A DNA stretch of 32,000 bases from Haloferax volcanii DS2. GTDB lineage: Archaea > Halobacteriota > Halobacteria > Halobacteriales > Haloferacaceae. The notes beneath the pieces are model-generated. The model was given only the letters and a program-made list of their open reading frames with translations. It was not told the DNA's origin and did no database searches. Below, one piece after another: positions 2,459 through 30,348 of this stretch. How positions within the stretch are numbered: position 1 is the first letter of the stretch; the number at the start of each line of letters is the position of its first letter. The stretch is taken from assembly GCF_000025685.1 (NCBI RefSeq), contig NC_013967.1, positions 2,640,001 to 2,672,000 on the forward strand, read 5' to 3'. The position numbers were made by a program, and so were the translations under genes.

Positions 2459-2481
2459 GTGATGCGATGGGAGGGCCGGGG

Positions 2482-3951: not shown

Positions 3952-4064
3952 GCCGGCCCGCCACACCGGACCACCAGCGCGGCCACCGCCGTCGAAGATG
4001 GGCGACCGCATCCGAGCACCCGAGACACGCGCACTTTTCTCTCCGACGACCCAACCACGAGTCG

Positions 4065-4646
4065 ATGAGCGACGACGCCTACCGAGAACTCCGTGCGGAC
4101 CCGAACCTCGGCGATGTGGTCGACGAACACGGCCCGCTCTCGCTCGACCCCGCCGACGACCCCTTCGAGCGACTGGTCGTCTCGATTGTCAACCAACAGC
4201 TCTCGACGACCGCGGCGGCGACGATTCGCGACCGCCTGTTCGACCGCGTCGAGGTCACCCCCGAGGGGATACTCGCCGTCGACGAGGATGTCCTGCGCGA
4301 CTGCGGCCTCTCGAACCAGAAAGTTGGCTACGTCCGCAACGTCGCCGACGCGTTCCGAGACGGCCTGTCGGCCGAGTCGTTACGAGAGATGGACGACGGC
4401 GAGGTCGTCTCGGCGCTCACCGAGATTCGCGGCGTCGGTGACTGGACCGCCAAGATGTTCCTCATCTTCGTGCTCGCCCGCGAGGACGTGTTCCCGGTCG
4501 AGGACCTCGGGATTCGTCGCGGGATGGAACACGTCTTCGGGTTCGAACAGGACGCCGTCTCCCGCGGCGAGATGCGCGAGCGCGCCGAGCGATGGGCACC
4601 CTATCGAAGCTACGCCAGCCGGTATCTCTGGCGGTGCGTGGACTAA
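4065..4646 (+). CDS. alkA: HhH-GPD DNA-3-methyladenine glycosylase II (AlkA-like)
   Basis: An internal ATG of track ORF 3525..4646 gives the acidic 193-aa protein MSDDAYRELRADPNLG.. . The HhH-GPD signature is LTEIRGVGDWTAKMFLIFVLAREDVFPVEDLGIRRG. The upstream part of the track ORF is Arg-rich junk overlapping rimK. Confidence 0.8.
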   Translation: MSDDAYRELRADPNLGDVVDEHGPLSLDPADDPFERLVVSIVNQQLSTTAAATIRDRLFDRVEVTPEGILAVDEDVLRDCGLSNQKVGYVRNVADAFRDGLSAESLREMDDGEVVSALTEIRGVGDWTAKMFLIFVLAREDVFPVEDLGIRRGMEHVFGFEQDAVSRGEMRERAERWAPYRSYASRYLWRCVD

Positions 4647-4787
4647 CTTCAGCTGGGTGGAAACGGAGTCTAGTCCGAGTAATCGATACACTGCACCCAC
4701 GTAGACCGCCAATCGAATAAACACAATCTGAGTTTACATTTCACGCGAGGGAAACGTTGAAACCGCGACGCAGTGTAACGTTCTTCC

Positions 4788-6773: not shown

Positions 6774-6859
6774 CCGGCCGTCGTGGGAGGGTTCCTCTCA
6801 CTCACCCACGATGGAACGCAACGCTTAAAATAGTCCAACGACCACTCGTGAATGCAGAC

Positions 6860-6934
<75 letters not shown>

Positions 6935-7091
6935 TCTCAAGGCTTCTACCGCCTGTTTTTCCGTGGTCTAGGAGAAACAGCAAATGGTCCATTTAGGCCA
7001 AACACGTTCGTCGTACCGTTCCCGTAGCACCGTTGTTCCCCCTTGTAGACGGTCGTCTGTTGCCACAACAGGGGTTTGGAGGCGACAGTAG

Positions 7092-8729: not shown

Positions 8730-10127
8730 CAGTACCTCACAAAGCCGTTTAGTTAGAAGGTCTGCTTGCTGAAGATGTGTCCAACAACCAGCAAACAGAC
8801 GATGAAATCCACGAGGACCAGCTCCTTAACTTCCTCGTCAACTCTCTTGACGAGGAAGTTGCTCTCTCACTCGCTGAAAACGCTGAACTCGATGCTGAAG
8901 ACATCTACGAGGTCCTCGTCGGCGCCTGCGCCGACGGGACCTCGGTCTCTACACTCTGCAAGAGAAGCGAAGATGCACCTCACGAAAACTCGGTTCTCTA
9001 CCATCTCCGCACCAAGTTCGACCTCGAGACGCTCGAACAAATCGGGAACACGCTCCTCCAGAAAGACGTTCTCGACGTCCTTCCCCAGCAGGTGGAGGTC
9101 TGCGCAGACCTCCACCTGCGGCCCTACTACGGCGACGAAGACGATACAGACGGCCTGTATCACTCACAAGCGAAGCGTGGAACCACCGCGTTTCACGCGT
9201 ACGCGACACTGTACGCACGCGTGAAGAACAAACGCTACACGCTGGCGGTGCGCCGTCTCGAAGACGGCGACACCGCCAGCAGTGTCCTCGCAGAGTTCCT
9301 CGGTATTCTCGACGGCCTTGACCTCGGTGTCAAGGCCGTCTATCTTGACCGCGAATTCTACGACAGCAAGTGTTTGACGCTGCTTCAGGCGCACAACCAC
9401 GCCTACGTCATGCCGATCGTCCGCTGGGGACGGACGATCAAGCGAGAACTCTCAGAAGGGTGGAGTCGCGTGATTCAGCACAGTCTGACAGCGAAACTCG
9501 ACGGTCACAGCTGGACCGTCGAGTTTCCCGTCTACATCGACTGTACCTACCAGAACGGACGGTACGACGAACATGGCGTGGCGCGTCACGGCTACGCCGC
9601 TGACGCGCCGTTCATCGACTCACCACGGGACGCTCGATACCACTACGCGAAACGCTTCGGTATCGAGGCAAGCTATCGACTCTCCGAGCAAAGTATCGCG
9701 ACGACCTCGACACAAAATCCGGTCGTACGGCTGTTGTACGTCGTGGTGAGCCTGCTGTTACAGAACGTCTGGCGGTATTTGCACTGGGAGTACGTGGCGA
9801 CGCCCCGCCGTGGGGGGCGTCGCCTCTGGGAGTGGTCGTTCAAGGAGTTCATCAATATGGTCCGTCGAGCAGCGTGGACGGCCCTCGCGGTGCGTCGGGC
9901 CGTCCCCGCGAACCGACCACCAGACGACCGGTTCCACCGGTAACTCCCGACCGGGCTAGCCAACAGTGGGAGTGGCGACGCTGTCGCGTCGGCGGCAGCC
10001 GCCGCCGACAGCGACGGCTCTCCGCCGATCCGTCCATGATTCTGTCGTCGAGACCGCCAATGCAACCGCTCGGCCACAGAATTCAGGCTTCAGAGACAGC
10101 TAGGCGAGGATGCTTTGTGAGGTACTG
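8730..10127 (+). mobile_element. ISH3/IS4-superfamily insertion sequence, copy A (1398 bp)
   Basis: 16-bp terminal inverted repeats: CAGTACCTCACAAAGC (8730..8745) and GCTTTGTGAGGTACTG (10112..10127). One transposase ORF. A near-identical second copy lies at 11879..13279. Size and IR length resemble the ISH27/ISH51 group as I recall it. Confidence 0.85.
8777..9943 (+). CDS. DDE transposase of IS copy A
   Basis: 388 aa with candidate DDE residues (ADLHLRPYYGD, AVYLDREFYD, YAKRFGIEASYR = Y-x2-R-x3-E). The track start is GTG and the true start is uncertain. Confidence 0.85.
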   Translation: MSNNQQTDDEIHEDQLLNFLVNSLDEEVALSLAENAELDAEDIYEVLVGACADGTSVSTLCKRSEDAPHENSVLYHLRTKFDLETLEQIGNTLLQKDVLDVLPQQVEVCADLHLRPYYGDEDDTDGLYHSQAKRGTTAFHAYATLYARVKNKRYTLAVRRLEDGDTASSVLAEFLGILDGLDLGVKAVYLDREFYDSKCLTLLQAHNHAYVMPIVRWGRTIKRELSEGWSRVIQHSLTAKLDGHSWTVEFPVYIDCTYQNGRYDEHGVARHGYAADAPFIDSPRDARYHYAKRFGIEASYRLSEQSIATTSTQNPVVRLLYVVVSLLLQNVWRYLHWEYVATPRRGGRRLWEWSFKEFINMVRRAAWTALAVRRAVPANRPPDDRFHR

Positions 10128-10634: not shown

Positions 10635-11738
10635 ATGAGCGATCTGGACGAACTCCCGGTCGTCACCGACGCCTCGAAGGAGTACTTGAACCCCCGCCAG
10701 TTGCTCGACTACCGAGCCGAACGAGAGGCGTGTCTCGACTGGCTGCTCACCTTCGGGAAGAAACCGGACGAGGCGAAGGGCTACGCGCTCGGGACCATCA
10801 AGACGGGTGCCTACCGGATGGACCGGTTCTACCGGTTCGTCTGGGAGGACGAGGGCGGGTACACCGCGAACGTCACCCACGAGCACGCCGACGCTTGGAT
10901 GAAACACCTCGCACGCGGGAACTCGGGCGCGGCACACAAACGCAACTGCCAGAAGTCGATCAAGCGCCTGTTCAAGTGGCGGCAGCACGAGCACGGTCTC
11001 GGGGAGTGGACACCGGACATTACGTTCGCCGCGGACTCCAGCACGAACCCCCGTGACTACTTAACGCGCGAGGAACGCGCGAGTGTGCGCGAAGCCGCGC
11101 TCGAATACGGATCCGTCCCGAACTACGATGGTCTCGCTCCGGCCGAGCGAGACCGGTGGAAGCAGTACCTCGCCCAGCGGTTCGAGAAACCGAAGTCCGA
11201 GGTCACGCCGGACGACTGGGACCGAGCGAACGGGTGGAAGGTCCCGTCGCTCGTCTGGACGAGCCTCGACGCCGGGCTCCGACCCATCGAGGTAGAACGC
11301 TCCACGGTCGGTTGGGTCGATACGGACAACGCGGTCCTCCGGATTCCGAAGGAGGAGAGCTCGAAGAACCGAGATCACTGGGTCGTCGGCCTCACGTCCA
11401 GGACCGCGCAGGCGCTCGACAACTGGCTCGAAGAGCGCGAGACGTACCCCGAGTACGACGACACGGACGCGATCTGGCTGACGCGGAAGTCGAACCCGTA
11501 CGGCACGGCCACGCTTGCATACCTGCTGCGGCAGCTGTGTGACATCGCCGGAATCGACACGACGCACCGGAAGATGTCGTGGTACGCGATCAGACACTCC
11601 GTCGGGACGTACATGACCCGGGAGGAGGACCTCGCGGCGACGCAGGCACAGCTCCGCCACAAGAGCCCCGAGACGACGATGAAGTACGATCAGGTGCCGG
11701 TCGAGGATCGTCAGGACGCCTTAGATCGGATGGGGTAG
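10635..11738 (+). CDS. tyrosine recombinase / phage-type integrase (int2), paralog of int1
   Basis: 367 aa, colinear with int1 (roughly half of residues identical by eye). Same catalytic pattern: AGLRPIEV, WYAIRHSVGT, LRHKSPETTMKY. GC content is host-like. Confidence 0.85.
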   Translation: MSDLDELPVVTDASKEYLNPRQLLDYRAEREACLDWLLTFGKKPDEAKGYALGTIKTGAYRMDRFYRFVWEDEGGYTANVTHEHADAWMKHLARGNSGAAHKRNCQKSIKRLFKWRQHEHGLGEWTPDITFAADSSTNPRDYLTREERASVREAALEYGSVPNYDGLAPAERDRWKQYLAQRFEKPKSEVTPDDWDRANGWKVPSLVWTSLDAGLRPIEVERSTVGWVDTDNAVLRIPKEESSKNRDHWVVGLTSRTAQALDNWLEERETYPEYDDTDAIWLTRKSNPYGTATLAYLLRQLCDIAGIDTTHRKMSWYAIRHSVGTYMTREEDLAATQAQLRHKSPETTMKYDQVPVEDRQDALDRMG

Positions 11739-11878: not shown

Positions 11879-13279
11879 CAGTACATCACAAAGCCTGTTA
11901 GTTGAGACGTCTGCTTGCTGAAGATGTGTCCAAGCAACCACAGCAAGCAGACGATGAAATCCACGAGGACCAGCTCCTTAACTTCCTCGTCAACTCTCTT
12001 GACGAGGAAGTTGCTCTCTCACTCGCTGAAAACGCTGAACTCGATGCTGAAGACATCTACGAGGTCCTCGTCGGCGCCTGCGCCGACGGGACCTCGGTCT
12101 CAACGCTCTGTGAGAGAAGCGAAGATGCACCCCACGAAAACTCCGTTCTCTACCATCTCCGCACTAAATTCGATCTAGAAACGCTCGAACAGGTTGGCAA
12201 CATGCTCCTCCAGAAAGACGTTCTCGACGTCCTTCCCCAGCAGGTGGAGGTCTGCGCAGACCTCCACCTGCGGCCCTACTATGGTGACGAAGACGACACG
12301 GACGGCCTGTATCACTCACAAGCGAAGCGTGGAACCACCGCGTTCCACGCGTACGCGACGCTGTACGCACGCGTGAAGAACAAACGCTACACGCTGGCGG
12401 TGCGCCGTCTCGAAGACGGCGACACCGCCAGCAGTGTCCTCGCAGAGTTCCTCGGTATTCTCGACGGCCTTGACCTCGGTGTCAAGGCCGTCTATCTTGA
12501 CCGCGAATTCTACGACAGCAAGTGTTTGACGCTGCTTCAGGCGCACAACCACGCGTACGTCATGCCGATCGTCCGCTGGGGACGGACGATCAAGCGAGAA
12601 CTCTCGGAAGGGTGGAGTCGCGTGATTCAGCACAGTCTGACGGCGAGACTCGACGGTCACAGCTGGACCGTCGAGTTTCCCGTCTACATCGACTGTACCT
12701 ACCAGAACGGACGGTACGACGAACATGGCGTGGCGCGTCACGGCTACGCCGCTGACGCGCCGTTCATCGACTCACCACGAGACGCTCGATACCACTACGC
12801 GAAACGCTTCGGTATCGAGGCAAGCTATCGACTCTCTGAACAAAGTATCGCGACGACCTCGACACAAAATCCGGTTGTACGGCTGCTGTACGTCGTGGTG
12901 AGCTTGCTGTTACAGAACGTGTGGCGGTATCTGCACTGGGAGTACGTGGCGACGCCCCGCCGAGGCGGGCGTCGCCTCTGGCAGTGGCCATTCAAGGAGT
13001 TCATCAACATGATCCGGCGGGCAGCGTGGACGGCCCTCGCGACGCGTCGGGCCGTCCCCGCGAACCGGCCACCGGACGACCGGTTCCACCGGTAACTCCC
13101 GACCGGGCTAGCCAACGGTGGGAGTGGCGACGCTGTCGCGTCGGCGGCAGCCGCCGCCGACAGCGACGGCTCTCCGCCGATCCGTCCATGATTCTCTCGT
13201 CGAAACCGCCAATGCAACCGCTCGGCCACAGAATTCAGGCTTCAGAGACAGCTAGGCGAGGATGCTTTGTGAGGTACTA
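11879..13279 (+). mobile_element. ISH3/IS4-superfamily insertion sequence, copy B
   Basis: IRs are CAGTACATCACAAAGC (11879..11894) and GCTTTGTGAGGTACTA (13264..13279), each with 1 mismatch to copy A. The body is near-identical to copy A and in the same orientation. Confidence 0.85.
11902..13095 (+). CDS. DDE transposase of IS copy B
   Basis: 397 aa. Differs from the copy A protein at only a few positions plus the extreme N-terminus (TTG track start). Confidence 0.85.
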   Translation: MRRLLAEDVSKQPQQADDEIHEDQLLNFLVNSLDEEVALSLAENAELDAEDIYEVLVGACADGTSVSTLCERSEDAPHENSVLYHLRTKFDLETLEQVGNMLLQKDVLDVLPQQVEVCADLHLRPYYGDEDDTDGLYHSQAKRGTTAFHAYATLYARVKNKRYTLAVRRLEDGDTASSVLAEFLGILDGLDLGVKAVYLDREFYDSKCLTLLQAHNHAYVMPIVRWGRTIKRELSEGWSRVIQHSLTARLDGHSWTVEFPVYIDCTYQNGRYDEHGVARHGYAADAPFIDSPRDARYHYAKRFGIEASYRLSEQSIATTSTQNPVVRLLYVVVSLLLQNVWRYLHWEYVATPRRGGRRLWQWPFKEFINMIRRAAWTALATRRAVPANRPPDDRFHR

Positions 13280-16568: not shown

Positions 16569-17452
16569 CCGGTAATTGTTCAAGGGAGATGTGTGTAGCG
16601 ACTGAGAGAACGACGACGAGTCGGAGCCGATCGATGGAACACGTACACGCGCGACATGACGAACTGCCCGGGCAGTTGACGCTGCACGTCGGCGACGAGG
16701 AACTGCTGTTGGACCGGGCTCGCCCCCGCGTTCGACCGACCGAGTTGGTGGTCGCACCCGTCGAGTTGCACAAGCGGAACGTCCAGCGGAGACTTCGTGA
16801 GCGGAGCGCGTCGAAGGGCGCGTTCGAGTTCGAGGACCCCGTGGGAGTGAGCCGGAGCGTCCTCGACGAAACGAACGTGCCGAGCAAGGCGATAGACCGA
16901 ATCGACCGCCTCGCGCTCGTGCGCTCGCTTCTGACGGAGAGCGAGTCGCGGGAGGCAGCCGGGGTATCGTTACCTTCGGGAGTCCCCTCGCGCGACCCGC
17001 AGTCCGTCGAACAGCTTCGCACCGAGGTGGAGGCGTTAACCAACTTCCACCCGGAGCGGGTCGGGGCGTGGAGGAGCGCGGCCGGGAGCTTGTACGAACC
17101 GATCGACGCCGAGAGCGAGGGGCAACTGGACGCCGCGCTCGACGTGGAGCGCGCGCTCCGAGAGCGGACGCCCAAAGCGATTTCCGAGACGGAACTCGTC
17201 CGACGAGCGACCCGTGCGATCACGGCGACGGAGGGCTCCGCGTGGACGGACGCGTATCCGGAAATCGAGCGCCTCACGCTCGTCGGTGTGAGCAGTCTCT
17301 CCGCACCGCACGCCGACCTCGTTCACTCGCTGCTGCTGGCGACGTCGCTGGAGGTTCACGTCCACTTCCGCCGGGGAACCGGGGAGTTCCTCCGAGGTCG
17401 GACGCCGGCACTTCTCGACATCGCCGGCCCGGGGAGGGAGGTGTTCGAATGA
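16565..17452 (+). CDS. AddB/RexB-like N-terminal (domain 1A-like) protein without a Walker A motif (operon gene 4)
   Basis: 295 aa. LTLHVGDEELLLDRA occupies the position of G-x-x-G-x-GKT. ELVVAPVELHKRNVQRRL resembles the AddB 'LIVPEQ..f..E..L' segment. ERLTLVGVSSLSAPHADLVHSLL resembles 'iyiDGF..ftP.E..li..L'. ATGA overlap at 16565; ATG 16634 is an alternative start. Confidence 0.5.
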   Translation: MTGNCSREMCVATERTTTSRSRSMEHVHARHDELPGQLTLHVGDEELLLDRARPRVRPTELVVAPVELHKRNVQRRLRERSASKGAFEFEDPVGVSRSVLDETNVPSKAIDRIDRLALVRSLLTESESREAAGVSLPSGVPSRDPQSVEQLRTEVEALTNFHPERVGAWRSAAGSLYEPIDAESEGQLDAALDVERALRERTPKAISETELVRRATRAITATEGSAWTDAYPEIERLTLVGVSSLSAPHADLVHSLLLATSLEVHVHFRRGTGEFLRGRTPALLDIAGPGREVFE

Positions 17453-18690
17453 CGTCGTCGAACCGGCTCTCGCTCTCGCGTCCGCTCGCAGAGACCGAGA
17501 CGCCGGTCGTCGAAGTCGTGGCGACGACCCGCCGCGAGGAAGCGCGGAGCGCGATGGCGGTCGTCGCGGCGCTGCGCGACCGGGGCGTTCCCGTCCGCGA
17601 TATCGCGGTGGTGGTCAGAGACCTCGACGCGTACGAACCGCCGTTCTTCAGGGCGGCGGTTCAGTACGGGATGGCCCCGGTGTTCTGGACGCAGCTCTAC
17701 GTCACCAGGACCCGCCCGTACGCGCTCGTCGAATCTGTCTGCGACGCGCTCGACGCGGAGGAACTCGACTCGGACACGCTCCTCCGCCCGCTCGAACACC
17801 GATGGGCCCCGGTGGAGGCGACGACGGACGAGTGGCCCGTCGAACCGGCGGCACTCGACCGGGTGAGACGAGCCCTCCCCGGGGGCTCTCGGACGCTCGA
17901 AGAGTGGACCGAGGCGCTGGAGGCGAGCGACGCGGACCCCCGCGTTCTGACGTTCGCGGACTGGCTCGGTACCGCTCCGGACCCGAGTCCTGAAACCGTT
18001 CGGTCCGTCCTGAGCGACGTCGTCGAGGGGTACGCCGAACACGGGCTCCCCGTGACGAAGGAGGCGGACTCGCCGGCACTGCTCGACACGGAGACCGACG
18101 CCCGGGCGGTCGTTCGGGTTCGGACCCTCGTCCGGCAGCTCCGTCACAAGTTCGACGACAGGCTCGACGAGGGAGCGGTCGAACGCTCGTGGGGCGACGT
18201 GGCGGAACTCGCCAACGTGATCGCCACGCAACGCCCGGGGCGACGCGAGCACTCCAACGCCCGCGCGCTGGACGTACTGGAGGCGAACGACGTGTGGGCG
18301 CTAGACGTCCCGTTCGTCGTGGCCGTCGGTCTGACTGCCGACGACTGGCATAGAGTGACCGATTCGATGGTCCCGCCGGAGTTCCAAGAGACGGTGTTGA
18401 GGGGAGACGGCGACGTCGGGAAGCTCGCGCCGAGACCGTCGTGGGTGAACGGACGCGACCGCGACCAGTTCCTCGACACGCTCGGCGCTGCCGGCGAAGC
18501 GGTCATCGTGACGCGGCACACGCAGACCGTCGACGGGAACGAAGTCTATCCATCCCCGTTTCTCGACCGGATAGACGCCCGGAGGATCAACGAATCCGAC
18601 AGACAGCGGCTGGTGAGTGAGGAACGAGAGCTGCCACCGGAGATACGACGGTTACTGCCACCGCAAGCGGAGGTGAGCGATGGTGAGTGA
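17449..18690 (+). CDS. AddB/RexB-like C-terminal (UvrD_C/2A-like) protein lacking a nuclease domain (operon gene 5)
   Basis: An internal ATG of track ORF 17068..18690 gives 413 aa, preceded by GGAGGTG. DIAVVVRDLDAYEPPFFRAAVQYGMAPVF and ALDVLEANDVWALDVPFVVAVGLTADDW resemble conserved AddB/UvrD 2A-domain segments. No PD-(D/E)XK or Cys cluster is visible. ATGA overlap with gene 4. Confidence 0.5.
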   Translation: MTSSNRLSLSRPLAETETPVVEVVATTRREEARSAMAVVAALRDRGVPVRDIAVVVRDLDAYEPPFFRAAVQYGMAPVFWTQLYVTRTRPYALVESVCDALDAEELDSDTLLRPLEHRWAPVEATTDEWPVEPAALDRVRRALPGGSRTLEEWTEALEASDADPRVLTFADWLGTAPDPSPETVRSVLSDVVEGYAEHGLPVTKEADSPALLDTETDARAVVRVRTLVRQLRHKFDDRLDEGAVERSWGDVAELANVIATQRPGRREHSNARALDVLEANDVWALDVPFVVAVGLTADDWHRVTDSMVPPEFQETVLRGDGDVGKLAPRPSWVNGRDRDQFLDTLGAAGEAVIVTRHTQTVDGNEVYPSPFLDRIDARRINESDRQRLVSEERELPPEIRRLLPPQAEVSDGE

Positions 18691-21600
18691 GGAGGAGGCG
18701 ACACCCGACGGCCCGCTCCGGTTGAAAGGGGCACAGCGGGAGATCAGGGACGAGTACTTCGCCTGCGACGCGGGGCTGTTCACGCTCAGCTGCGTTCCCG
18801 GTTCCGGGAAGTCGGCGACCGCAACTCACATCGCCGCAGAAGACCTCCTCCGTCGGTACGTCGACGGTGATCCGACCCCCGAGCTGCACGTCGCGGTGGT
18901 CTCGTTCAACAGGGACGAGGCCGCCTCGATCGTTCCCGCGGTCTGTGAGCGGCTCCGAGTCATCGTCGAACACGAGCTCGTTCCGGCCGCGTCGGAGGTG
19001 TCCGAACCGGAACTGAAGTACCTCCTCCAGCGGGTTCGTCGAGCGCCGTTCATCGGGACCATCGACAGCCTACTCAGGGGAGTCCTCCGAGAGGTCGTTC
19101 ACGACGTGGGGTTCGAGACGATGCCGTCGGTCGGAAACGAGGCGCTGTTGAAACGAGTCCACGCAGAGTGTTACGACCGAATCTCCGACGACCCGGCGTG
19201 CGCACGCCGACTCGAACGGCTGGAAGCCGCGTATCCGTCGGGTGACCACGACGCCGGCGTCGCGGAGATGCTCGAACGGGCGCTGAGGTACTGCCGCGAC
19301 CGGCGGCTCACGACGGAAGCGTTTCGGGTCGAGCTCGAACGAACGCGCGACGCGGTGTACGGAGACGGAGAGCCGGACTCGTTCGAGGACGTAGTATCGA
19401 GCGTGGAGCGCTGTCTCGGCGACTACGAGGCGGCCGGAGAGCGAGCCCGCGATTCGGTAAGCGACGTGGACCGTGGCCGCATCGTCGAAGCGGACAACGC
19501 GCTGTACCACGCGTGGGGCGCGCGTATCGAAGACCTCTGCGAGACGCTCTCGACGTACCGGGAGACCTACCGAGACGCCGTTCGTGAGTTCGGCGTCCTG
19601 TCCCACATCGACGTCTCGTACCTCGTCGACGCGTACTTCGGCGGCGAGTTCGAAGACTTCGACCGCGAGCTCCGGGACCACGTGCTCGGGAAGTACCGGT
19701 CCCGGATTCGGAGCCTCATCGTCGACGAGGCGCAGGACGTCTCGGCGATACAGCACGCCGCGCTCTCGCACCTCGTCACGCCCGAAGTGCGCGTTCTCGG
19801 CTGCGGGGACGTCCTGCAGGGAATCTACCTGTGGCGGCACGCGGACCCGTCGCTGTTCGAGTCGGCCACGACATCCGGTCGGTACCTGGGTATCGACTGG
19901 GACGTCCACGAGAACCGGACCGCGGCGACGACGTACCGCTGCGTGCCGGCGATCGCGTCCGCCGTCAACACCGTCGCGGAACCGATATTCGGCGATCCCG
20001 CCCGCGGGAACATCGGCGACCTCGATGCGGAATACACTCCGCTGGAGGCCGCGCGAGACGAGGTCGAAGAGACCGCCGTGCACGTCTCCTCGTTCACCGG
20101 CGTCGGCCATCCCGGGACGTCCACGTGGGCGAACCCCGACGGGGGACGGGGAGAGGCGAACATCCTGGCGACGCACATCTCTCGCGGTATCTCCGACGGG
20201 ACGTTCGCCGACGAGAACGGAGACCCGCTCGGGATCACCGTCCTGTTCAGGCGCAAATCGAGGATGAGCGATTACGATGCCGCGTTCGAAGCGGAGGGGC
20301 TCCGCGTCCGAAACGCGAGCGAGAACCTCTTCGACTGCCCCGCAGTTCGGGCCGTGTTCGACGTCTGTGACTGGCTCGTCGATTCGGCTTCGCCGGAGGG
20401 GACGAGGCGACTCGTCACGGAGTCGGGTCTCGGCCTCGAATCTCTCGAAGGGATCTTCGAAGCGAACGCGTGGAGTGTCGATCGCGTGCTCGACAGCGCA
20501 GACGAGGGCGCTCTCACCGAAGCCCAAAGAGAAACGCTCGCGGCGCTTCGTCGGCTCCGCGACCGCCGCGACGTCTTCGAGACGTTCCCCGCTCGGACGT
20601 ACGTCGAGGAGGTCGTCGGAGCCCTCGCGCTCAGGGCGGACCCTCACGGTGACTTCGGAGACGTCGATCCCGCGCAGCGGGTCGCAAACGCGGACGCGCT
20701 CGTCGAGACGATAGCGCAGTGGGCGGGTGACGAGCACCACTCTCTCCCCGATCTACTGGACCTCGTCGAGCCGTTCCGAGAGGAACCGGACGCCGGGCCG
20801 ACACGGCCGAGTTCCGTCGACGCCGATTACGACGTGCTCTTCCAGACGGTGCATCGCGCCAAGGGCGACCAGGACGACGTCGTCGTTATCGCGGACCCAG
20901 GGTTCAATATCTGGACCCAGGGCCCCCACGCCCAGCGCTTCGTCGCACAGGGCAACATCGCGGGGCTCGCGCCGCCGACGGACGCGAGCGCTCCCACCGA
21001 CGTCACGATCCCGCCCTTCGACGGTGGGCTGTACGACCCGAGCGACGGGTGGCAGCGCGACGTCGGGCTCCGTTGGGCGACCGCTCGATGGCGTGATACG
21101 GCTGTCCCCACTGCAGATCCCGACGTCCTCGTCGGTCCTCCGAGACTCCGCCGGTTGGCCGAGAACGAGCGGGCCGAGTCCTGGCGGCTGCTGTACGTCG
21201 CGCTCACGCGTGCGATGGACCACTTGATGATCCCGTTACCGAGGACTTTTCCCGGGGGACGCCCGCGAGACCGCTGGCTCGACTCGATCCGTGACGGGCT
21301 CCGCTTCCCGGACGGGTGTACAGAGACGTACACGCTCGCGCCGATCGAGTCGGACCCGAACAGCGAGCGGATACGGATCGGCGTCAACGACGCCGACCTG
21401 CTGGCCCGTCGGCACAGGAAGGGGAGCTCGACGCCGCTTCCCGAGGTCGCCGTGAGAGCTCCCATCTCCGATCGACTGGCTCCGTGGGTTCCTCGTTTCG
21501 TCAACCCGAGCACGATGTATCCCCTCACGAAGGACAAGGACCGATACGCGCTCGCTCACCTGCTCGGAGAACCGCTCCACACCGAGACGAACGACGTCGC

Positions 21601-22204
21601 GGAGGACCTGCCACTCGTCTTCGAGCGGATGGGCCCCGACGAGGTCGGGTCCTGCGTGCACGGGGTACTGACCGAACTCGTCAAACGCGAGGTGTCGGAG
21701 CGCGCCGTCCGATCGATGGGCGACGAGGTCAGAGACGTGTTCGACGAGGTCGTTCACGAACGCGAACCGGGTATCGGCGTCGACGAGCGGGACGGGCTGT
21801 TCGCCTTCTTCTCGGATGTGCTCGACGATTTCTTGGAATCCGACCTCTGGGCGCGGATCGCGGAGGCGGAGACCGTCGTCGTCGAGCGCCCCGTCGACGG
21901 ACTCGTGTCGCTCGGGGACGTCGAGATCGAAGTCCACGGCGAGGCGGACTTCCTCACCGTGTCTCCCTCGGGTGAGATTCACGTCACCGACGTGAAGGCG
22001 TCCCTGACCGATCTGACCGAGGAGACCCGACGCCGGTACGAACTACAGGTAGCCGCCTACGGATACCTCTTCGACCGGCAAGAGGCATCGGCGGAGCCGG
22101 TGCGACGGACCGTCGAGACGTTCGGCGCGACGCGCGAGACCGTCTCGTCGTCGTGGTCGCCGTCGATCGTCGAACGCCGGTTGTCCATGCTCACGGACGA
22201 TTGA
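18680..22204 (+). CDS. AddA/RecB-like SF1 (UvrD/Rep) helicase fused to a C-terminal PD-(D/E)XK nuclease (operon gene 6)
   Basis: 1174 aa. SF1 motifs: CVPGSGKSAT (I), VVSFNRDEAA (Ia), LIVDEAQD (II), GDVLQGIYLWRHA (III), TYRCVP (IV), VHRAKGDQDDVVVI and LLYVALTRA (V/VI). C-terminal nuclease pattern: GSCVHGVL..GEADFL..IHVTDVKAS..YELQVAAYGY. Confidence 0.85.
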   Translation: MVSEEEATPDGPLRLKGAQREIRDEYFACDAGLFTLSCVPGSGKSATATHIAAEDLLRRYVDGDPTPELHVAVVSFNRDEAASIVPAVCERLRVIVEHELVPAASEVSEPELKYLLQRVRRAPFIGTIDSLLRGVLREVVHDVGFETMPSVGNEALLKRVHAECYDRISDDPACARRLERLEAAYPSGDHDAGVAEMLERALRYCRDRRLTTEAFRVELERTRDAVYGDGEPDSFEDVVSSVERCLGDYEAAGERARDSVSDVDRGRIVEADNALYHAWGARIEDLCETLSTYRETYRDAVREFGVLSHIDVSYLVDAYFGGEFEDFDRELRDHVLGKYRSRIRSLIVDEAQDVSAIQHAALSHLVTPEVRVLGCGDVLQGIYLWRHADPSLFESATTSGRYLGIDWDVHENRTAATTYRCVPAIASAVNTVAEPIFGDPARGNIGDLDAEYTPLEAARDEVEETAVHVSSFTGVGHPGTSTWANPDGGRGEANILATHISRGISDGTFADENGDPLGITVLFRRKSRMSDYDAAFEAEGLRVRNASENLFDCPAVRAVFDVCDWLVDSASPEGTRRLVTESGLGLESLEGIFEANAWSVDRVLDSADEGALTEAQRETLAALRRLRDRRDVFETFPARTYVEEVVGALALRADPHGDFGDVDPAQRVANADALVETIAQWAGDEHHSLPDLLDLVEPFREEPDAGPTRPSSVDADYDVLFQTVHRAKGDQDDVVVIADPGFNIWTQGPHAQRFVAQGNIAGLAPPTDASAPTDVTIPPFDGGLYDPSDGWQRDVGLRWATARWRDTAVPTADPDVLVGPPRLRRLAENERAESWRLLYVALTRAMDHLMIPLPRTFPGGRPRDRWLDSIRDGLRFPDGCTETYTLAPIESDPNSERIRIGVNDADLLARRHRKGSSTPLPEVAVRAPISDRLAPWVPRFVNPSTMYPLTKDKDRYALAHLLGEPLHTETNDVAEDLPLVFERMGPDEVGSCVHGVLTELVKREVSERAVRSMGDEVRDVFDEVVHEREPGIGVDERDGLFAFFSDVLDDFLESDLWARIAEAETVVVERPVDGLVSLGDVEIEVHGEADFLTVSPSGEIHVTDVKASLTDLTEETRRRYELQVAAYGYLFDRQEASAEPVRRTVETFGATRETVSSSWSPSIVERRLSMLTDD

Positions 22205-22443: not shown

Positions 22444-23394
22444 ATGACCGAATCGGACCCCGCGGAACTCCCACCGCCGAACGAGGGGACGCCGCCGCTC
22501 GACGCCGCGGTCGCGGTGGAGTGGTGGTTCGAGTTCGAGGAGGACGGACGGCCGAAGCTCGACACGTTCCACGGCTTTCACGACGCCGAGAAGATCGCGG
22601 ACGGAGATCTTCCGGAAGTCGAAGACAGCGAGGTAGTCACCGCGACCGGTGCCCCCGTCGATTCGAACGGTGCGCTCGAAGGGGACGCGGGAGACCCCCG
22701 CCACGTGTTCCTCACGCATCGAGAGGCGCTTTCGCGCGGTATCGACCCGTGTACCAGTTGTTTCCCGCGGTACGCGACCGACCGTCGTATCGAGAGGGAG
22801 CGAGGAGACGACGGGCTCCTCACCGAACCGGGCGTCGAGGGTGTCGTGTTCAAGCTCTCCACCCGGTACGACTTGGAGTCCGACTGGACCGTCGATTCGC
22901 TTCACGATTCATACACGTCGATGCTGTACCGCGCTCGCGCGGTTCGTAAACACGCCGGGTCCGCCGGTGGGCGGCTTCGCGTCTCGTACATGCCGATTCG
23001 GCGGTGTGACTACGCGTCGTTCGAGCAGGCGATGGCCGCGGAGCCGTCGATGGCACACGTGTCCAAGCTCAGGTCGATACAGCCCGACGAACTGCCAGCA
23101 GTTCGTGATCGATTCGGCGACGACGCGCTTCGAACGCAGGTCGTCCACGAGCACCGCGTCACGGACACGGCCGACACGAGACCGCCGATACTCCACGAGT
23201 CGGAGAGTCCGCCCTGTGGATACGAACGCGATTCGCCCCTCTGGGGCGGGGAAGAGGACGAAGAGATTCGGGAGATGTTCGAGGATGTCCGACCGACGGT
23301 CGCCGACGTCATCGAACAGGGTAACGTGGTCCGGTTCTGTGAGACGTGTTTCCCGGAGCTCGCGTCGTGGGACGAGGACGCTATGGACGAGTAG
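22444..23394 (+). CDS. acidic hypothetical protein with two C-x-x-C-F-P motifs
   Basis: 316 aa with strongly acidic, haloarchaeal-type composition. DPCTSCFPRY and RFCETCFPEL lie about 200 residues apart and could be a split zinc-binding site. No family recognised. Confidence 0.6.
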   Translation: MTESDPAELPPPNEGTPPLDAAVAVEWWFEFEEDGRPKLDTFHGFHDAEKIADGDLPEVEDSEVVTATGAPVDSNGALEGDAGDPRHVFLTHREALSRGIDPCTSCFPRYATDRRIERERGDDGLLTEPGVEGVVFKLSTRYDLESDWTVDSLHDSYTSMLYRARAVRKHAGSAGGRLRVSYMPIRRCDYASFEQAMAAEPSMAHVSKLRSIQPDELPAVRDRFGDDALRTQVVHEHRVTDTADTRPPILHESESPPCGYERDSPLWGGEEDEEIREMFEDVRPTVADVIEQGNVVRFCETCFPELASWDEDAMDE

Positions 23395-23427: not shown

Positions 23428-23700
23428 CACCTCGTTTCCTGACTTCAGCCTTCCGGGCACCTGGTTTCCTTACTGGGGGTTTTGGAACACCTCGTTTCCT
23501 CACTGAGGGTAGACCCCGTTTCCGCACTGGGAGGATTTCGAGCGCTTAACGTCCTTCTGAAGACACCACCTCGTTTCCGCACTGGGTGTTTTCCGGACAC
23601 CACATTTCCGCACTGAAGGTGACCCCGTTTCCGCACTGGATGTTCTGGGGCACATCATTTCCGCACTGAGGCCTCACCTCGTTTCCTCACTGGGACATCG
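23428..23700 (+). repeat. array of nine direct iteron-like repeats, consensus CAC(C)TCGTTTCC(G/T)CACTGRG
   Basis: The (G/A)TTTCC cores begin at 23434, 23464, 23494, 23518, 23573, 23604, 23627, 23657 and 23681. All have the same orientation, with spacings of 30, 30, 24, 55, 31, 23, 30 and 24 nt. The array lies between convergent genes. Confidence 0.85.
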
Positions 23701-23715: not shown

Positions 23716-24333
23716 TCACACCTTCAGCAGATGGTCGTAGATTCGCTCGGTCGTCTGGATGCTCCTGTGACGAAGGCGATTACGAACGTCGTAGAGCGAG
23801 TTCCCTTCCTCTTCGTTCATCATCCGGTAGGCGACGCCGTGCCGGAGGGCGTGCGGCGTGACGTCGCCGGGAGTCCCCCTACTCCCATCAAGCCTGAAGG
23901 GGCGAATCTCCGCCTTTTCGGCTATTTTGTGGATCATATTACGGACACCCTGTTCGGAGATGCGATCGGAAGAGCGCGATGGAAAGAGCGCCGGTGTGTC
24001 CTTCCACCGGTTGGTGAGATACGAAGACAGCAGTCGCGTGGTGTCGTCGGAGCATTCGAGCGTGACCGGCGGCGGCGAGTGCTCGTTGGGGTAGTCCTTC
24101 TGGACCTCGGTCGGCAGGTAGAGTTCCGAGTTGTCGTTGCGAAGGAACTCGACGTCGACGCGGACGAGTTCGCCGACGCGGAGTCCCGTGTCGTACATCG
24201 CGGTCACGATGGCTTCGTTGCGTTGCTGTAGGTACTCAGCACCGGTCGTGTAACACGCCGAGCGGAGCGCCTCGACTTGGTCGGGTGTCACCCACACTTT
24301 CGCTCGAACTTTGGAGTTTGCATATTCGCTCAT
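23716..24333 (-). CDS. small tyrosine recombinase (int3), catalytic domain only
   Basis: 205 aa. TGLRVGELVRV (Arg), TPHALRHGVAYRM (H-x-x-R), RLRHRSIQTTERIY (His..Tyr). Confidence 0.8.
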   Translation of the reverse strand: MSEYANSKVRAKVWVTPDQVEALRSACYTTGAEYLQQRNEAIVTAMYDTGLRVGELVRVDVEFLRNDNSELYLPTEVQKDYPNEHSPPPVTLECSDDTTRLLSSYLTNRWKDTPALFPSRSSDRISEQGVRNMIHKIAEKAEIRPFRLDGSRGTPGDVTPHALRHGVAYRMMNEEEGNSLYDVRNRLRHRSIQTTERIYDHLLKV

Positions 24334-24376: not shown

Positions 24377-24412
24377 TGAACTTTGGAGTCTACAAGAAGA
24401 TTCCAAAGTTCA
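24377..24412. promoter_or_regulatory. 11-bp inverted repeat TGAACTTTGGA / TCCAAAGTTCA with a 14-nt spacer, upstream of int3
   Basis: Arms at 24377..24387 and 24402..24412. A third, direct copy GAACTTTGGAGT lies at 24306..24317 inside the first codons of int3 and is identical to 24378..24389. Confidence 0.6.
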
Positions 24413-24678: not shown

Positions 24679-26093
24679 GTCTTAGGACCATTGGTGTTCG
24701 GTTAAGCACTGGATCGCCTCCTGAAGGCCTCAGCTACTCGTTCGTTGAGTAAGAGCCGCGATTTCTCTGGTTGGCGGGCGTCACGAAACAGCAGTTCCGA
24801 CAGGTTCGGCGGTGGATGGCCGAACGACTGGGCCAGATCTTCGAGCATGAGCTGGGCGAGAGACCGGAAGGTCTTCGCCCAGCGTTCTCGCGGAAACACT
24901 GTCTCTGGGAACAGCTCCTGAAACACCCCGAGCAAGGCTCTGCTGACCGTCAGCGTCAGCAGAGCCGCCACCACTAACAGCTCCACGATCGCTGGATCAC
25001 TCGTCTGGAATTTCTCCAGCCCATACAGCGACTTCAGTTCCCGGAACACCAACTCCACTTCCCACCGCAACCCGTACAGCGCCCCGACCTGCCTTGGAGT
25101 GAACTCATCGGGCAGATTCGTCACGTACAGGTGGTAGTCGTCGGTGTCCTCGTTGCGGACACCGACGACGCGAAACTCCATCGAATCCGTTGATTCCTTC
25201 CCAGCGTATGCCCGCCGTTTGAACTCGATCTCTACCGTTACGTCGATGATCTCCCGACTGAGATCTTCCAGAACGTCCCGAAGACGACGCTCTGGCAAGG
25301 AAATGGCGCGCCCGCGCCATTTCCGTCGCTCTCCAACGATCAACGGATTCGCGTTCGACTTCAGCCGACTCAGGAAGAACCCGCCGTTCTCCTCGATCAA
25401 CGCGAAGCGGCGGAAACTGTAGAAGCCCAGATCGAACAGTAACAGCCGGCCTCGTAGCCAACTCCCGGTGCGGAGTTGGCTGCTCTCGTGGGTGCGTTCA
25501 TCGGTGAGCTGGAACTGCTCGATCGTCTGCTTGGTCGCGTTCTGCACGAGGTGGAGTTTCGCGCCGGATTGACCCGAGTGAGTGGCTGGAAACGAATCGA
25601 GGAGCCGATGCAACCTGAACACGGTTGCATCGGCGATCAGTACGTCTCGAAACAGCTCGAACTGTGGCGCGATCGTGTGAGGAACCGCGACCTCCTCGAG
25701 AGCGTGCTCGAGGAGGTCGTTCAACAGTGCTGCGAGGGCCGGCGTGAACCGATCGTAGAAGCTTGAGCGGGCAACGGTCTGGTTGGTTGCTGCGGAGTAC
25801 GCCCGTTGAAAGCCGGCGATAGTTCGGGCTTCGCCGTCGACGGCGAAGCCCATGATGAGCGTCCAGACGAGCATCGTGATGTCGATTTTCCGGTCACGCT
25901 GGACGACATCGCGCTCGCGCGCGATGTCTTCGATTAGCTCGGTGGGAAACAGGGAAGTCAACCGTCGTCGTATGAGATCCGGGGAGAGTTGGTTTAGCAC
26001 ATTCTCTCCCCACGCGGTCTACAACGATAGCTTCGTCACTAGAGCGCCGTCTGTCGGTTTCTCCGCTTAACCGAACACGGATGGTCTTAGGAC
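24679..26093 (-). mobile_element. IS4-family insertion sequence (about 1415 bp)
   Basis: Imperfect 29-bp terminal IRs: GTCTTAGGACCATTGGTGTTCGGTTAAGC (24679..24707) and GCTTAACCGAACACGGATGGTCTTAGGAC (26065..26093). A single transposase ORF whose stop lies inside the IR. Confidence 0.85.
24702..26000 (-). CDS. IS4-family DDE transposase
   Basis: 432 aa. LIADATVF and LLLFDLGFYS supply the Asp residues. YGLRWEVELVFRELK matches the IS4 Y-x2-R-x3-E-x6-K signature. Confidence 0.9.
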   Translation of the reverse strand: MLNQLSPDLIRRRLTSLFPTELIEDIARERDVVQRDRKIDITMLVWTLIMGFAVDGEARTIAGFQRAYSAATNQTVARSSFYDRFTPALAALLNDLLEHALEEVAVPHTIAPQFELFRDVLIADATVFRLHRLLDSFPATHSGQSGAKLHLVQNATKQTIEQFQLTDERTHESSQLRTGSWLRGRLLLFDLGFYSFRRFALIEENGGFFLSRLKSNANPLIVGERRKWRGRAISLPERRLRDVLEDLSREIIDVTVEIEFKRRAYAGKESTDSMEFRVVGVRNEDTDDYHLYVTNLPDEFTPRQVGALYGLRWEVELVFRELKSLYGLEKFQTSDPAIVELLVVAALLTLTVSRALLGVFQELFPETVFPRERWAKTFRSLAQLMLEDLAQSFGHPPPNLSELLFRDARQPEKSRLLLNERVAEAFRRRSSA

Positions 26094-26111
26094 GATACAC
26101 CCCCCTGAGCG

Positions 26112-26218
26112 GAGTGTCTACAGACCGATTCGCAAGTTCATATCTCCGTAGACACTCTCTAAGGAGTGTAGAAAGTGTCTACGGTCTTTGAGAAAACATC
26201 AATATATTGATAAACATC
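26112..26218. repeat. cluster of GTGTCTAC motifs plus an AT-only 14-bp palindrome
   Basis: GAGTGTCTAC at 26112..26121, its inverse GTAGACACTC at 26148..26157, and AAGTGTCTACGG at 26173..26184. The perfect palindrome ATCAATATATTGAT at 26198..26211 is flanked by AAACATC on both sides. Confidence 0.7.
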
Positions 26219-26227
26219 CCGGAAATG

Positions 26228-26812
26228 TACATTGAAAAATGCACGATCTATTTGGAATCGTAGGACGGCAAGGGGAGACGTTTCTGAAAATCCTCTGTAT
26301 GTGTGAGAATTTTTAGTTTATCTGGGTCGAATTTGAGTGGAGTCCGCTAATCCGCAGGTCAACCCATGCAACGAAATCACGATGATCTGTTTGGAACCAA
26401 AAGACGGCGATAGATCCGTCCATCACATTGATTTCTGCACGCATTCTTTGGGATCGAAAGACGGCGGAGAGGCGGAAAGAAAGTTCCATTTCCCGGCCGA
26501 ACTCCGCTTGTGCGGCTACTTTCGGTGTCAATCCTGATTTGACCCTTCTGGACGTGATTGTAGTCAGATCTCTGAACTTTTACCTACATTGAAATCCGCA
26601 CGATTGATTCGTAATCCGGAGACAGGGCTCACTTCACGCTTCGCTGTGAAATCGACACGATCCGTTGGGAATCGCTATCCCGCAGCTCGGGTACCGGATC
26701 TCGACGTGGCATCGGAATACTGATGATTGAGATGATAGGTTCCTAAACCACGGATCTCCCGGGTACTACCGGCGAATACTCACATTGAATTTCGTACGAC
26801 TTCTTCGTGTGG
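26228..26812 (+). repeat. six degenerate direct repeats of about 32 nt, consensus ACATTGAAAnnnGCACGATnnnTTTGGAATCG, in AT-rich non-coding DNA
   Basis: Copies start near 26228, 26368, 26424, 26585, 26644 and 26781, alternating long and short spacing (140, 56, 161, 59, 137). Several are followed by a (A/G)GACGGC box. Confidence 0.65.
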
Positions 26813-27267
26813 CAAGTAGAAGCGCCAGCATCCCCAGCTAGCGGTGTTTGAATTTCTGCCATTCGTGTCCGATATTTGTCTGGACATAATTCTATCATAT
26901 AATCGAATAACTCTCTCGAATACCATTATAGAACTCGCACAACTGCTGATTGGACATATAACATAGATGTGCATTCTTATCAAGAGTTTTGACGGATTCA
27001 ATGAGGAATCTGATAGCTTGTCCGAGCAGACCGGAGTTGGAGGGGTTCTAGCCGATCATCGAATTTGAAATACCAACAGAGAGTGTTCTGAAAATATGTT
27101 CTCTGCTGGTATGCAGAGTCGGTGGTCGCGGTTGGGTGGTTCGATGCGCTTAGTCGAACGCCCCATCTTCGACGTCCGGAACCCCCCGAACGGATTGACG
27201 CGACGGATGTCTCAATGGCTTCCTTCTCTGTTTGGTCGGCTGCACTGGTCCGGTCTATGCCGCGCAG

Positions 27268-28163
27268 TCACTCTGCACCGGAGTTCGACTCCGTGGTCTT
27301 GAGACGCAGCGTGTCGCCGTCGCGTTCGATGACCTGCTTATCGAGGAGGCGGGTGATCGCATCGGTCACCGCCCGTTCGTCACCGTCCGAAAGCGACCGC
27401 ACGTTCGACAGGACGAAGGACCGAATCGAACTCGTTTCGCGCCTCCCGTCGTCGATCGCCCCCAGAACGAAGTACTCGGCCTCGAATTCGGTTGCGAATT
27501 CCGAAACGCGTTCTGTGAACGACACCGGTAACCCGGATAGCATCTGCACCGCGGTCTCGATAGCGAACAGCGGGTGGGATCGATCGCGGATGTGTCGCGC
27601 CTCCGTCGAACCCGAATTGAACGGGCGCTGCTTCTCGATCTCCTCCAGGATCGACTCGTACTCCAGCCCGCGTTGCGCGTACAATCGCATGTCCTCGATG
27701 TCCCGCCGCCTTCCGCTCCCCAAGTCACCGCCTGAGACGGCTTTCAGCAGGAACATGTCTTCGTCGGAGAGTACGTACGCCGTCGCGTGCTCGCCGACCC
27801 AGAACTCCTCCGCCCGCTCGTGCATCCGAGTCGTGATCCACACCTTCCCGACTACCTGCCGTTCGAACAGGTCGATTCGGAGCCCTCGCTCGGGATGACG
27901 CGTCTCGACCGTTTCCCGACGCCGTCGAAGGGCTCGGTGGGCTCGTCAATCACCTCGAACCCGTTCCGTTGCAACGCCTCGTACACGTGCTCGAATTCGG
28001 TCGTCACGGCGAGGGCCAAGTCGATGTCCTCGGTCTGGGCTTTGAGTCCCCGAACCGTCATCGCCGACCCGCCCAGTAGGTACACGTCGACGGGTTCCGA
28101 GAGCCATTCGTCGAACTCGGACAGGAACTCCCTGATGGCGTCGCCGCCGCTGAAGACCGCCAT
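27268..28163 (-). pseudogene. AbiEii/AbiGii-like nucleotidyltransferase (toxin-type), interrupted by one frameshift
   Basis: Track ORFs 27852..28163 (VDVYLLGGSAMTVRGLKAQTEDIDLAL = NTase G-[GS]..D-x-D pattern) and 27268..27843 are adjacent. Manual translation shows that the downstream frame continues upstream as ..ETVETRHPERGLRIDLFERQVVGKVWITTRMHERAEEFW. A single +/-1 shift near 27890..27930 (a G3A3 run lies at 27912..27917) would join them into about 295 aa. Confidence 0.65.
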
Positions 28164-30199: not shown

Positions 30200-30241
30200 C
30201 CTTTCGAGCCGAGGACCAGGGTTCAAATCCCTGACCGAGCA
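30200..30241 (+). repeat. attR: exact 42-nt copy of the tRNA-Glu 3' part
   Basis: Identical to 6893..6934. Not preceded by the 5' half of a tRNA. Confidence 0.85.
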
Positions 30242-30321: not shown

Positions 30322-30348
30322 GGTTCAAATCCCTGACCGAGCACTTCT
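30322..30348 (+). repeat. third, shorter att copy (27 nt identical to 30220..30246)
   Basis: GGTTCAAATCCCTGACCGAGCACTTCT. It covers the tRNA 3' end plus 5 nt of shared downstream sequence. The preceding ~12 nt (GAGCGAGCGACTGA) are a degraded match to the tRNA. Confidence 0.8.

Follow-up and report, generated by a model that had tools for sequence, protein, structure and literature searches.

An array of origin-recognition-box-like repeats in the tRNA-Glu island of Haloferax volcanii DS2

A stretch of 32,000 nucleotides from the main chromosome of Haloferax volcanii DS2 (contig NC_013967.1, positions 2,640,001 to 2,672,000, in the following called the window; the chromosomal assignment rests on exact protein look-ups) carries a dense array of short direct repeats next to a gene for a small tyrosine recombinase, int3. 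The array is best described as a selected, lineage-restricted cluster of binding sites resembling origin recognition boxes (ORBs), which lies in the plasmid-like backbone of an island integrated at a tRNA-Glu gene. The sites are conserved against a diverging background, vary in copy number, are ORB-like and are independent of the recombinase family to which the neighbouring gene belongs. From the sequence we infer that they may be bound in trans by an Orc1/Cdc6 paralogue and serve origin function or initiator titration, and we give this reading a probability of about 0.4. We regard the array as a probable orphan array for initiator binding rather than a site of recombinase action.

Repeat units and their conservation

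An initial annotation of this DNA, made from the letters alone, reported nine iteron-like repeats of the same orientation and considered them too regular to be due to chance. Both parts are confirmed. Reading of the sequence and repeat tools agree on nine 18-nt units, all on one strand, at 23428-23692, and the strand given for the array in Table 1 is the one on which a box is read first and a G-rich tail afterwards. The invariant core of the unit is GTTTCC(G/T)CACTG. The GTTTCC cores start at 23434, 23464, 23494, 23518, 23573, 23604, 23627, 23657 and 23681, with core-to-core spacings of 30, 30, 24, 55, 31, 23, 30 and 24 nt; a super-period of 54 nt, made up of the 30+24 doublet, was also found by Tandem Repeats Finder. 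The 12-mer GTTTCCKCACTG with at most two mismatches occurs 13 times in the 32 kb, compared to 4.0 ± 1.9 times in shuffled sequences, none of which reached 13, and nine of the 13 occurrences are found within 260 bp on one strand. A weight matrix for the 18-nt unit was made from 38 units. In the whole window it exceeds 10 bits at the nine array sites only, and these score 26-37 bits. A k-mer cluster search of the window showed no iteron-like cluster besides the array. In number, direct orientation, unit length and spacing (23-31 bp) the units resemble plasmid iterons, for which about 17-22 bp and two to three helical turns are expected. A hairpin of the form CCTC...GAGG in each unit was considered and rejected, as manual comparison showed no covariation of the flanks between alleles.

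The array was compared in four alleles, those of DS2, L237, L244 (H. massiliensis) and L245 (another H. volcanii strain), which have 9, 10, 8 and 11 units, respectively. Insertions and deletions between the alleles are whole units. All four keep the plan of two sub-arrays with a central gap of 55-56 nt core to core and at least eight units; the sequence of the central spacer has diverged in H. massiliensis while its length is kept. Between strains the 12-nt cores are 96-98% identical, the spacers 75-94% and the third codon positions of int3 76-87%. Slippage or gene conversion would copy the spacers too, yet the spacers diverge, and we therefore ascribe the conservation of the cores to purifying selection. 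The contrast between cores and spacers thus points to sequence-specific binding sites, and it is very likely that the array consists of functional protein-binding sites.

Plasmids and proviruses were where the initial annotation would have looked for relatives of the unit, but blastn of the array against plasmids and phages gave no similar sequence, and scans of viral contigs and JGI metagenomes gave unrelated arrays only. Three haloarchaeal matches to a loose two-unit pattern (L009, L092 and L093, among the matches listed) are unrelated tandem repeats. No mention of the unit motif in a relevant context was found in the searchable literature. Two bacterial phage-like contigs, L216 (4560-4665) and L269 (reverse complement, 600-700), have three to four direct palindromic operators, GGT(A/G)CGGTTTCCG(C/T)ACTGG, which contain the 12-mer of the array. 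As relatives of the array these operators (GTGCGG-TTT-CCGCAC) were rejected; the motifs overlap by chance and not by homology.

Resemblance to origin recognition boxes

In archaea the Orc1/Cdc6 initiator proteins recognize ORBs as their binding sites. Read on the minus strand the unit has 18 informative positions, CAGTG(C/A)GGAAA(C/T)G(A/G)GGT(G/C), and for comparison we took the origins given by Wu et al. 2012 (PMC3528665, Additional file 4). There the ORBs of H. volcanii oriC2 (orc5) read TTCACCGGAAACGTGGTGTG or TTCACCGGAAACGTGGTG, the ORB of the Halogeometricum orthologue (Hbor_14700) reads TTTCACCGGAAACGAGGTGT, and those of orc8 and of Halobacterium orc4 read AACGTCGGAAACGTGGGGTGGG (PMC3528665). 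The array consensus has CGGAAACGWGGTG, 12 of 13 nt, in common with all of these types. The register of the match, a box and then a G-string, is the same as in the alignment to the ORBs of orc1, orc2 and orc8, and the score of the contiguous 13-nt block was equalled by only 3 of 3000 shuffles of the consensus (p about 0.001). Unit 6, GACACCACATTTCCG, is identical to one oriC2 ORB over 15 nt. The unit thus possesses the GGAAAC core and the following G-string at a fixed register by which ORBs are recognized. The resemblance to ORB cores, which the initial annotation had pointed out while proposing a comparison with known ORB sets, holds up against these sequences. In addition, the 5' half of the unit, CCAGTG, is that of the euryarchaeal mini-ORB consensus GTTCCAGTGGAAAC as quoted by Norais et al. 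2007 (PMC1868953). A text search of the origin-sequence supplement (about 100 kb) found CGGAAACGTGG/CCACGTTTCCG 32 times and CGGAAACGAGG/CCTCGTTTCC four times; the looser pattern GGAAAYGNGGKG does not occur in the 32-kb window outside the array.

The likeness to known origins differs from feature to feature. The ORBs of orc5/oriC2 (“oriCb”) and of orc8/Halobacterium orc4 (PMC1868953, PMC3528665) share with the array the core CGGAAACG(A/T)GGTG, and like the units of the array they are present in several copies per locus, many of them co-oriented on one side of the origin. The specificity box is different, CAGTG in the array versus TTCAC or AACGT in these two types, the G-string is shorter in the array, and the spacing is 23-31 bp compared to 46-167 bp in oriC2. 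Unlike the orc5/oriC2-type origins the array has no adjacent orc gene, no inverted ORB and no duplex unwinding element (DUE) between repeats. The layout is that of ori-pHV1/4, the orc10-linked origin of H. volcanii which is validated as an autonomously replicating sequence (ARS) and has eight direct ORB-like repeats with a spacing of 28-34 bp. This removes an objection of the initial annotation, which took the direct orientation of the copies to speak against ORBs. The box of ori-pHV1/4, CACTCGACAC-GGTGGTG, is however not that of the array, its repeats sit directly between a DUE of 68% AT and the start codon of orc10, and an inverted ORB lies on the far side of the DUE; no such arrangement is seen here. 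The canonical mini-ORB, GTTCCAGTGGAAAC-AAA----GGGGG, consists of the halves CCAGTG and GAAAC followed by a G-rich tail, as does the array unit, but in the latter the dyad is broken because two extra bases (CG) part the halves, and the left TT of the dyad is missing.

Another kind of likeness is that to iteron control loci outside the origin, such as P1 incA with its nine 19-bp repeats downstream of repA, F incC and E. coli datA. In these loci, too, about nine direct initiator-type sites are found at the 3' end of a gene and without an unwinding element, and by this analogy a titration or handcuffing logic is plausible for the array. The bacterial loci work with Rep or DnaA, have the initiator gene in cis and have matching iterons in a nearby origin, whereas neither a cognate initiator nor a second set of iterons was identified for the array.

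The possible binder and rival explanations

Our hypothesis is that the array is bound by a single Orc1/Cdc6 paralogue whose gene lies at another place in the genome, and that binding to the eight to eleven packed co-oriented sites would be cooperative. The array could then load the initiator at an origin of the excised island that is served in trans, with unwinding in the AT-rich region beyond int3, or it could be a locus for initiator titration or handcuffing as are P1 incA or E. coli datA. The plasmid-like context fits with this: the array lies in a tRNA-Glu island and beside a recombinase with a halovirus homologue, Int2. So may its orientation. In oriC1 and ori-pHV1/4 the ORBs on the DUE side point their box ends at the DUE, as can be read from the sequences, and the box ends of the array face int3 and the conserved non-coding region of about 1.5 kb beyond it. 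On the box-proximal side, the part of this region at 26094-27267 is the sole candidate for unwinding, and as an origin-like trait the orientation is suggestive but weak.

A more far-reaching proposal is that the island brings along no more than the cis half of an archaeal origin, a densely packed series of ORB-like sites which have a new specificity box and lack an initiator gene, and borrows or soaks up a host Orc1/Cdc6 paralogue. We consider this rather doubtful. If it were true, the array might be a trans-served origin for the excised circle or an initiator sink similar to datA and incA, and in the case of a sink the element could sense or manipulate the licensing of host replication. H. 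volcanii is a model for origin-dependent versus origin-independent archaeal replication and has sixteen Orc1/Cdc6 paralogues, most of which to our knowledge have no known DNA target. As a concrete bait that is easy to clone, the array could help to find a target for one of the orphan paralogues, and it could also be used to ask whether mobile elements of archaea employ the initiators of their host in trans or titrate them. ORB and iteron arrays as such are already known and no new category is proposed; new here is an ORB-like array with a new specificity box. Should the binder not be an Orc protein, the locus would still represent a new protein-DNA array of high density in an organism with well-developed genetics, with modest wider significance.

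A number of observations weigh against an Orc1/Cdc6 binder and a role in replication. Pfam and NCBIfam searches found no orc1/cdc6, rep or primase gene in the island or in any sizeable open reading frame (ORF) of the 32 kb, in agreement with the initial annotation as regards orc1/cdc6 and rep, and no orc1/cdc6 gene is present within ±8 kb of the array in L244, L245 and L237. The lack of an orc or rep gene in the window is the main obstacle to calling the array an origin. The window holds no inverted unit above 10 bits and no unwinding element between inverted ORBs. The array itself is 42-46% AT and has no adjoining AT-rich element; int3 in its full length lies between the array and the nearest AT-rich DNA, and stretches reaching 60% AT or more are first met at 24340, 26144-26260 and 26844-26990, all beyond int3. 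The earlier statement that the copies do not flank an AT-rich element is thus correct for the immediate neighbourhood, but box-proximal stretches of 60-68% AT do exist farther away. Likewise, the plasmid or provirus iteron layout which the initial annotation saw here is retained in so far as the units are iteron-like and lie within an integrated element, and fails in that the rep gene in cis and the adjacent AT-rich region are missing. As to the sequence of the unit, its similarity to ORBs is significant for the contiguous 13-nt block only; by total matches it is not, since 319 of 3000 shuffles were as good. None of the origins predicted in 15 haloarchaeal genomes contains the 5' box CAGTGCGG, the whole unit does not carry the cognate specificity box of a known Orc family, and known ORBs score only 0.5-5 bits by the full 18-nt matrix, though they rank at the top in their origins. 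Compared to the canonical mini-ORB there is the 2-nt insertion, and the G-rich tail is short, 6 nt. We know of no published origin at this locus from the ARS screens and replication profiles of H. volcanii. Finally, the array is confined to one narrow Haloferax lineage, so that the comparative power is low.

The recombinase is the other obvious candidate for an interaction with the repeats, and the array does lie between convergent genes beside it as first described (ORFs ending at 23394 and 23716; match to PF00589). Int3 consists of the catalytic domain only. Its best NCBIfam match is archaeal XerA, in the catalytic part, and profile searches found no N-terminal arm-binding domain. The family is haloarchaeal, large and strongly conserved; it counts 752 proteins at E<=1e-40, and the matches listed are 72-87% identical between genera. 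A search of viral contigs found no relatives. Int3 is 45-49% identical to Int2 of the haloviruses phiCh1, phiH and ChaoS9, and in phiCh1 and phiH int2 sits in the repH/repR/parA maintenance module. A near-perfect 14-6-14 dyad, GAACTTTGGAGTCT-N6-AGACTCCAAAGTTC, closely followed by a TATA-like box, lies some 45-80 nt ahead of the start codon in DS2 and at six loci of six other genera (DL31, Haladaptatus, Halorubrum, Haloarcula, Halobacterium and Halocalculus); L001, L002, L003, L292, L293 and L294 are among the loci examined in which it is present. It was not detected in a seventh locus (Salinigranum, L004). In three of the six loci, as in DS2, a further and weaker half-site match is found within the 5' coding region. 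The dyad has the architecture of a tyrosine-recombinase core site. In DS2 it is, judged by its sequence, the probable recombination or operator site of int3, and in the family at large it looks like an undescribed, widespread Xer-like module for resolution or autoregulation. At seven other loci of the int3 family, from seven genera, there is neither a nine-fold array nor a match to the matrix.

An explanation of the array as a set of accessory sites for int3, of the architectural or arm type and building a synapse for resolution or inversion as the TnpI DR repeats of Tn4430, the lambda arm sites or the Int1 clusters of phiCh1 do, would account for its position 23 nt before the stop codon of int3, for the co-inheritance of the two in four Haloferax genomes and for the gain and loss of whole units, which could be recombinase products. 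In phiCh1 and phiH, repeat clusters are indeed substrates of small haloarchaeal recombinases (PMC6210493). But the family has its own dyad in six other genera and lacks the array at all seven loci examined, array and dyad have unrelated motifs and lie about 680 bp apart with the whole int3 gene between them, an inverted second cluster is missing and Int3 lacks an arm-binding domain. The arm-site reading, which the initial annotation had listed, is thus unsupported, and we regard it as quite improbable. Nor does the array resemble a core site, which would have inverted elements and a spacer of 6-8 bp, as all nine units are on one strand. The invertible Int1 segment of phiCh1 and phiH likewise has a small haloarchaeal recombinase beside a cluster of direct repeats of about 30 bp; there the repeats lie inside tail-fibre ORFs, form two inverted clusters around int1 and are unrelated in sequence, whereas the array is a single intergenic cluster and int3 is a homologue of Int2 and not of Int1. 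A terminus of an insertion sequence (IS), miniature inverted-repeat transposable element (MITE) or transposon, which was raised at the outset as something that would undo the interpretation, does not fit either: the array shows no such boundary and no inverted set, ISHvo12 is 988 bp away and absent in relatives which keep the array, and every allele has conserved DNA on either side of the array. Still less credible, in our opinion, is that the array works as RNA, either as part of the 3' untranslated region of HVO_2828 or int3 or as a small RNA (sRNA), in the manner of a CsrB-type protein sponge. Being between two convergent 3' ends it is probably transcribed from at least one side, and the low predicted structure would suit a sponge with single-stranded motifs. 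However, the window has no Rfam match besides tRNA-Glu, there is no TATA-like element within the array, manual comparison of the alleles gave no covarying hairpin, the searchable transcript tables have no entry, and a conserved 18-nt unit with a G-rich tail is typical of duplex ORB sites. A structured RNA was rejected, as no Rfam match was found and the folding z-scores of +1.04 and +1.88 mean that both strands fold worse than shuffled sequences.

Two further explanations were considered. According to the one the binder is not an Orc protein but an island-encoded protein, for example the double winged-helix protein HVO_2833 or the zinc-motif protein HVO_2828, or a host factor, the array would be a centromere-like site for partition, pairing or silencing of the island, and the ORB likeness would be convergent or ancestral. 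The conservation of cores over spacers indicates protein binding and does not name the protein; in four of four alleles the array is inherited together with HVO_2828, int3 and the nucleotidyltransferase-like, HVO_2833-type winged helix-turn-helix (wHTH) and endonuclease III-like genes; plasmid centromeres, parC and parH among them, typically consist of dense direct repeats of this size; and the 5' box of the unit matches no known Orc-associated ORB. On the other hand, profile searches found no ParA/ParB/SegAB-type gene in the island, and the partition site which had been among the initial suggestions loses ground as no ParA/ParB gene adjoins the array. The more distant homologues of HVO_2828 (54-69% identity) have neither an array nor a recombinase adjoining, the array is not an operator for HVO_2828 or int3 because it lies at the 3' ends of both convergent genes, and the in-register 12/13 match to ORBs would have to be a coincidence (p about 0.001). 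A non-Orc binder appears somewhat unlikely to us. According to the other explanation, which we consider unlikely, the array is the relic of an origin in a plasmid ancestor, which has lost its orc gene and unwinding element or had them displaced by the cargo and the int3 cassette, and the repeats persist without function by duplication and loss of units. ORB-like sequence and layout in the absence of an orc gene, an inverted ORB and an adjacent DUE speak for such a history, as do the copy number of 8 to 11 among close relatives, the degenerate outermost unit and an island full of IS elements with one frameshifted gene. Such a relic is difficult to reconcile with cores that are more conserved than the spacers and the synonymous sites of int3, with the lack of the homogenised whole units, spacers included, which slippage or gene conversion should produce, and with the maintenance of at least eight units and the plan of two sub-arrays in all four lineages.

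The island around the array

The array lies within an integrated element of about 23.3 kb, as follows from the exact att repeats at 6893-6934 and 30200-30241. The features of the window are collected in Table 1.

Table 1. Coordinates of the array, its units and other features of the 32-kb window
Feature	Position	Strand	Basis or remark
attL, 3' 42 nt of tRNA-Glu(TTC) (gene 6860-6934)	6893..6934	+	exact repeat
HVO_2828, 316 aa, two CxxCFP motifs	22444..23394	+	stop codon 34 nt from unit 1
Whole array, left sub-array of 4 and right sub-array of 5	23428..23692	-	repeat tools, matrix
Unit 1, most degenerate, + strand CACCTCGTTTCCTGACTT	23428..23445	-	26.4 bits
Unit 2	23458..23475	-	32.0 bits
Unit 3	23488..23505	-	37.0 bits
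Unit 4	23512..23529	-	27.9 bits
Unique central spacer separating the sub-arrays	23530..23566	.	allele comparison
Unit 5, minus strand CAGTGCGGAAACGAGGTG, exactly the consensus	23567..23584	-	34.5 bits
Unit 6, + strand GACACCACATTTCCG	23598..23615	-	32.1 bits
Unit 7	23621..23638	-	33.8 bits
Unit 8	23651..23668	-	32.2 bits
Unit 9	23675..23692	-	34.3 bits
int3, small tyrosine recombinase, 205 aa, D4GX89	23716..24333	-	PF00589 (Phage_integrase), E=9.6e-23
Third int3 half-site GAACTTTGGAGT, inside the int3 5' coding region	24306..24317	+	motif match
Dyad TGAACTTTGGAGTCT-N6-AGATTCCAAAGTTCA upstream of int3, probable recombination or operator site	24377..24412	.	conserved across genera
ISHvo12 (432-aa transposase), DS2-specific, outside the array system	24689..26083	-	10-bp target duplication 24679-24688 = 26084-26093
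Conserved non-coding AT-rich region, 60-68% AT at 26144-26260 and 26844-26990	26094..27267	.	AT profile, allele comparison
attR, exact 42-nt direct repeat of the tRNA-Glu 3' end, right island border	30200..30241	+	exact repeat

The array is flanked by HVO_2828 on the plus strand and int3 on the minus strand. The four alleles have the right-hand backbone in common, which consists of HVO_2828, the array, int3, about 1.5 kb of non-coding DNA and the nucleotidyltransferase-like, HVO_2833-type wHTH and endonuclease III-like genes, and the cargo to the left of HVO_2828 varies among them. The attR of DS2 is also present in L244 and L245; the L237 locus stops short of that point. In DS2 the island contains two paralogous integrases, four IS copies, an operon for an AddA/UvrD-like helicase-nuclease, HVO_2828, the array, int3, the AT-rich non-coding region, a frameshifted nucleotidyltransferase-like gene, the HVO_2833-type double wHTH gene and the endonuclease III-like gene. 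It is not among the four described proviruses Halfvol1-4 (PMC12091111). A third, partial copy of the tRNA-Glu end (22 nt) is found at 30322-30343, about 100 nt past attR, and suggests a trace of an earlier tandem integration.

The two integrase genes, 7092-8246 and 10635-11738, encode proteins 53% identical to each other and are followed by ISH3-family transposase copies at 8777-9943 and 11902-13095, respectively; the two ISH3-family copies are about 94% identical over 300 nt. Either an integrase and IS arrangement was duplicated or two elements have accreted. The cargo at 16634-22204 is an operon with a Halo_UvrD_like gene and genes for a 413-aa protein and a 1174-aa UvrD/PD-(D/E)XK protein (AddA/GajB-like), found in DS2 and H. 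massiliensis. In L245 the cargo (1-7230) is instead a methyltransferase, a DEAD helicase and an SMC-like ATPase, and the island has the appearance of a defence island.

Profile and fold searches gave no match for HVO_2828. Its alleles have 89-95% amino acid identity with 87-95% identity at third positions, that is, many amino acid changes, and those of int3 94-97% amino acid identity with 76-87% at third positions, that is, strong constraint. ARAGORN calls a tRNA-Gly(CCC) inside the HVO_2828 coding region (22648-22729, minus strand), which is probably a false positive because Rfam gives no support at the gathering threshold. The transcript and transcription start site supplements have no entry for HVO_2827 to HVO_2830, and a literature search on the names HVO_2827-HVO_2830 gave one unrelated mention of HVO_2830.

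ISHvo12 splits the non-coding region upstream of int3 in DS2 and is absent in L237, L244 and L245. The AT-rich region contains dispersed repeats of about 41 nt (ACATTGAAAnnnGCACGAT...TTTGGAATCGnAAGACGGC) at 26229-26269, 26368-26408, 26425-26465, 26586-26626 and 26782-26808 and an inverted repeat around 26110-26185; for this region the roles of a promoter, a cluster of sRNAs or the core of an origin are conceivable. A candidate inverted copy of the array unit at 26999-27010 was rejected, as it scores less than 10 bits by the matrix. The nucleotidyltransferase-like gene at 27268-28163 (minus strand) is frameshifted in DS2 into ORFs of 103 and 191 aa and is intact, with 298 aa, in L244 and L245.

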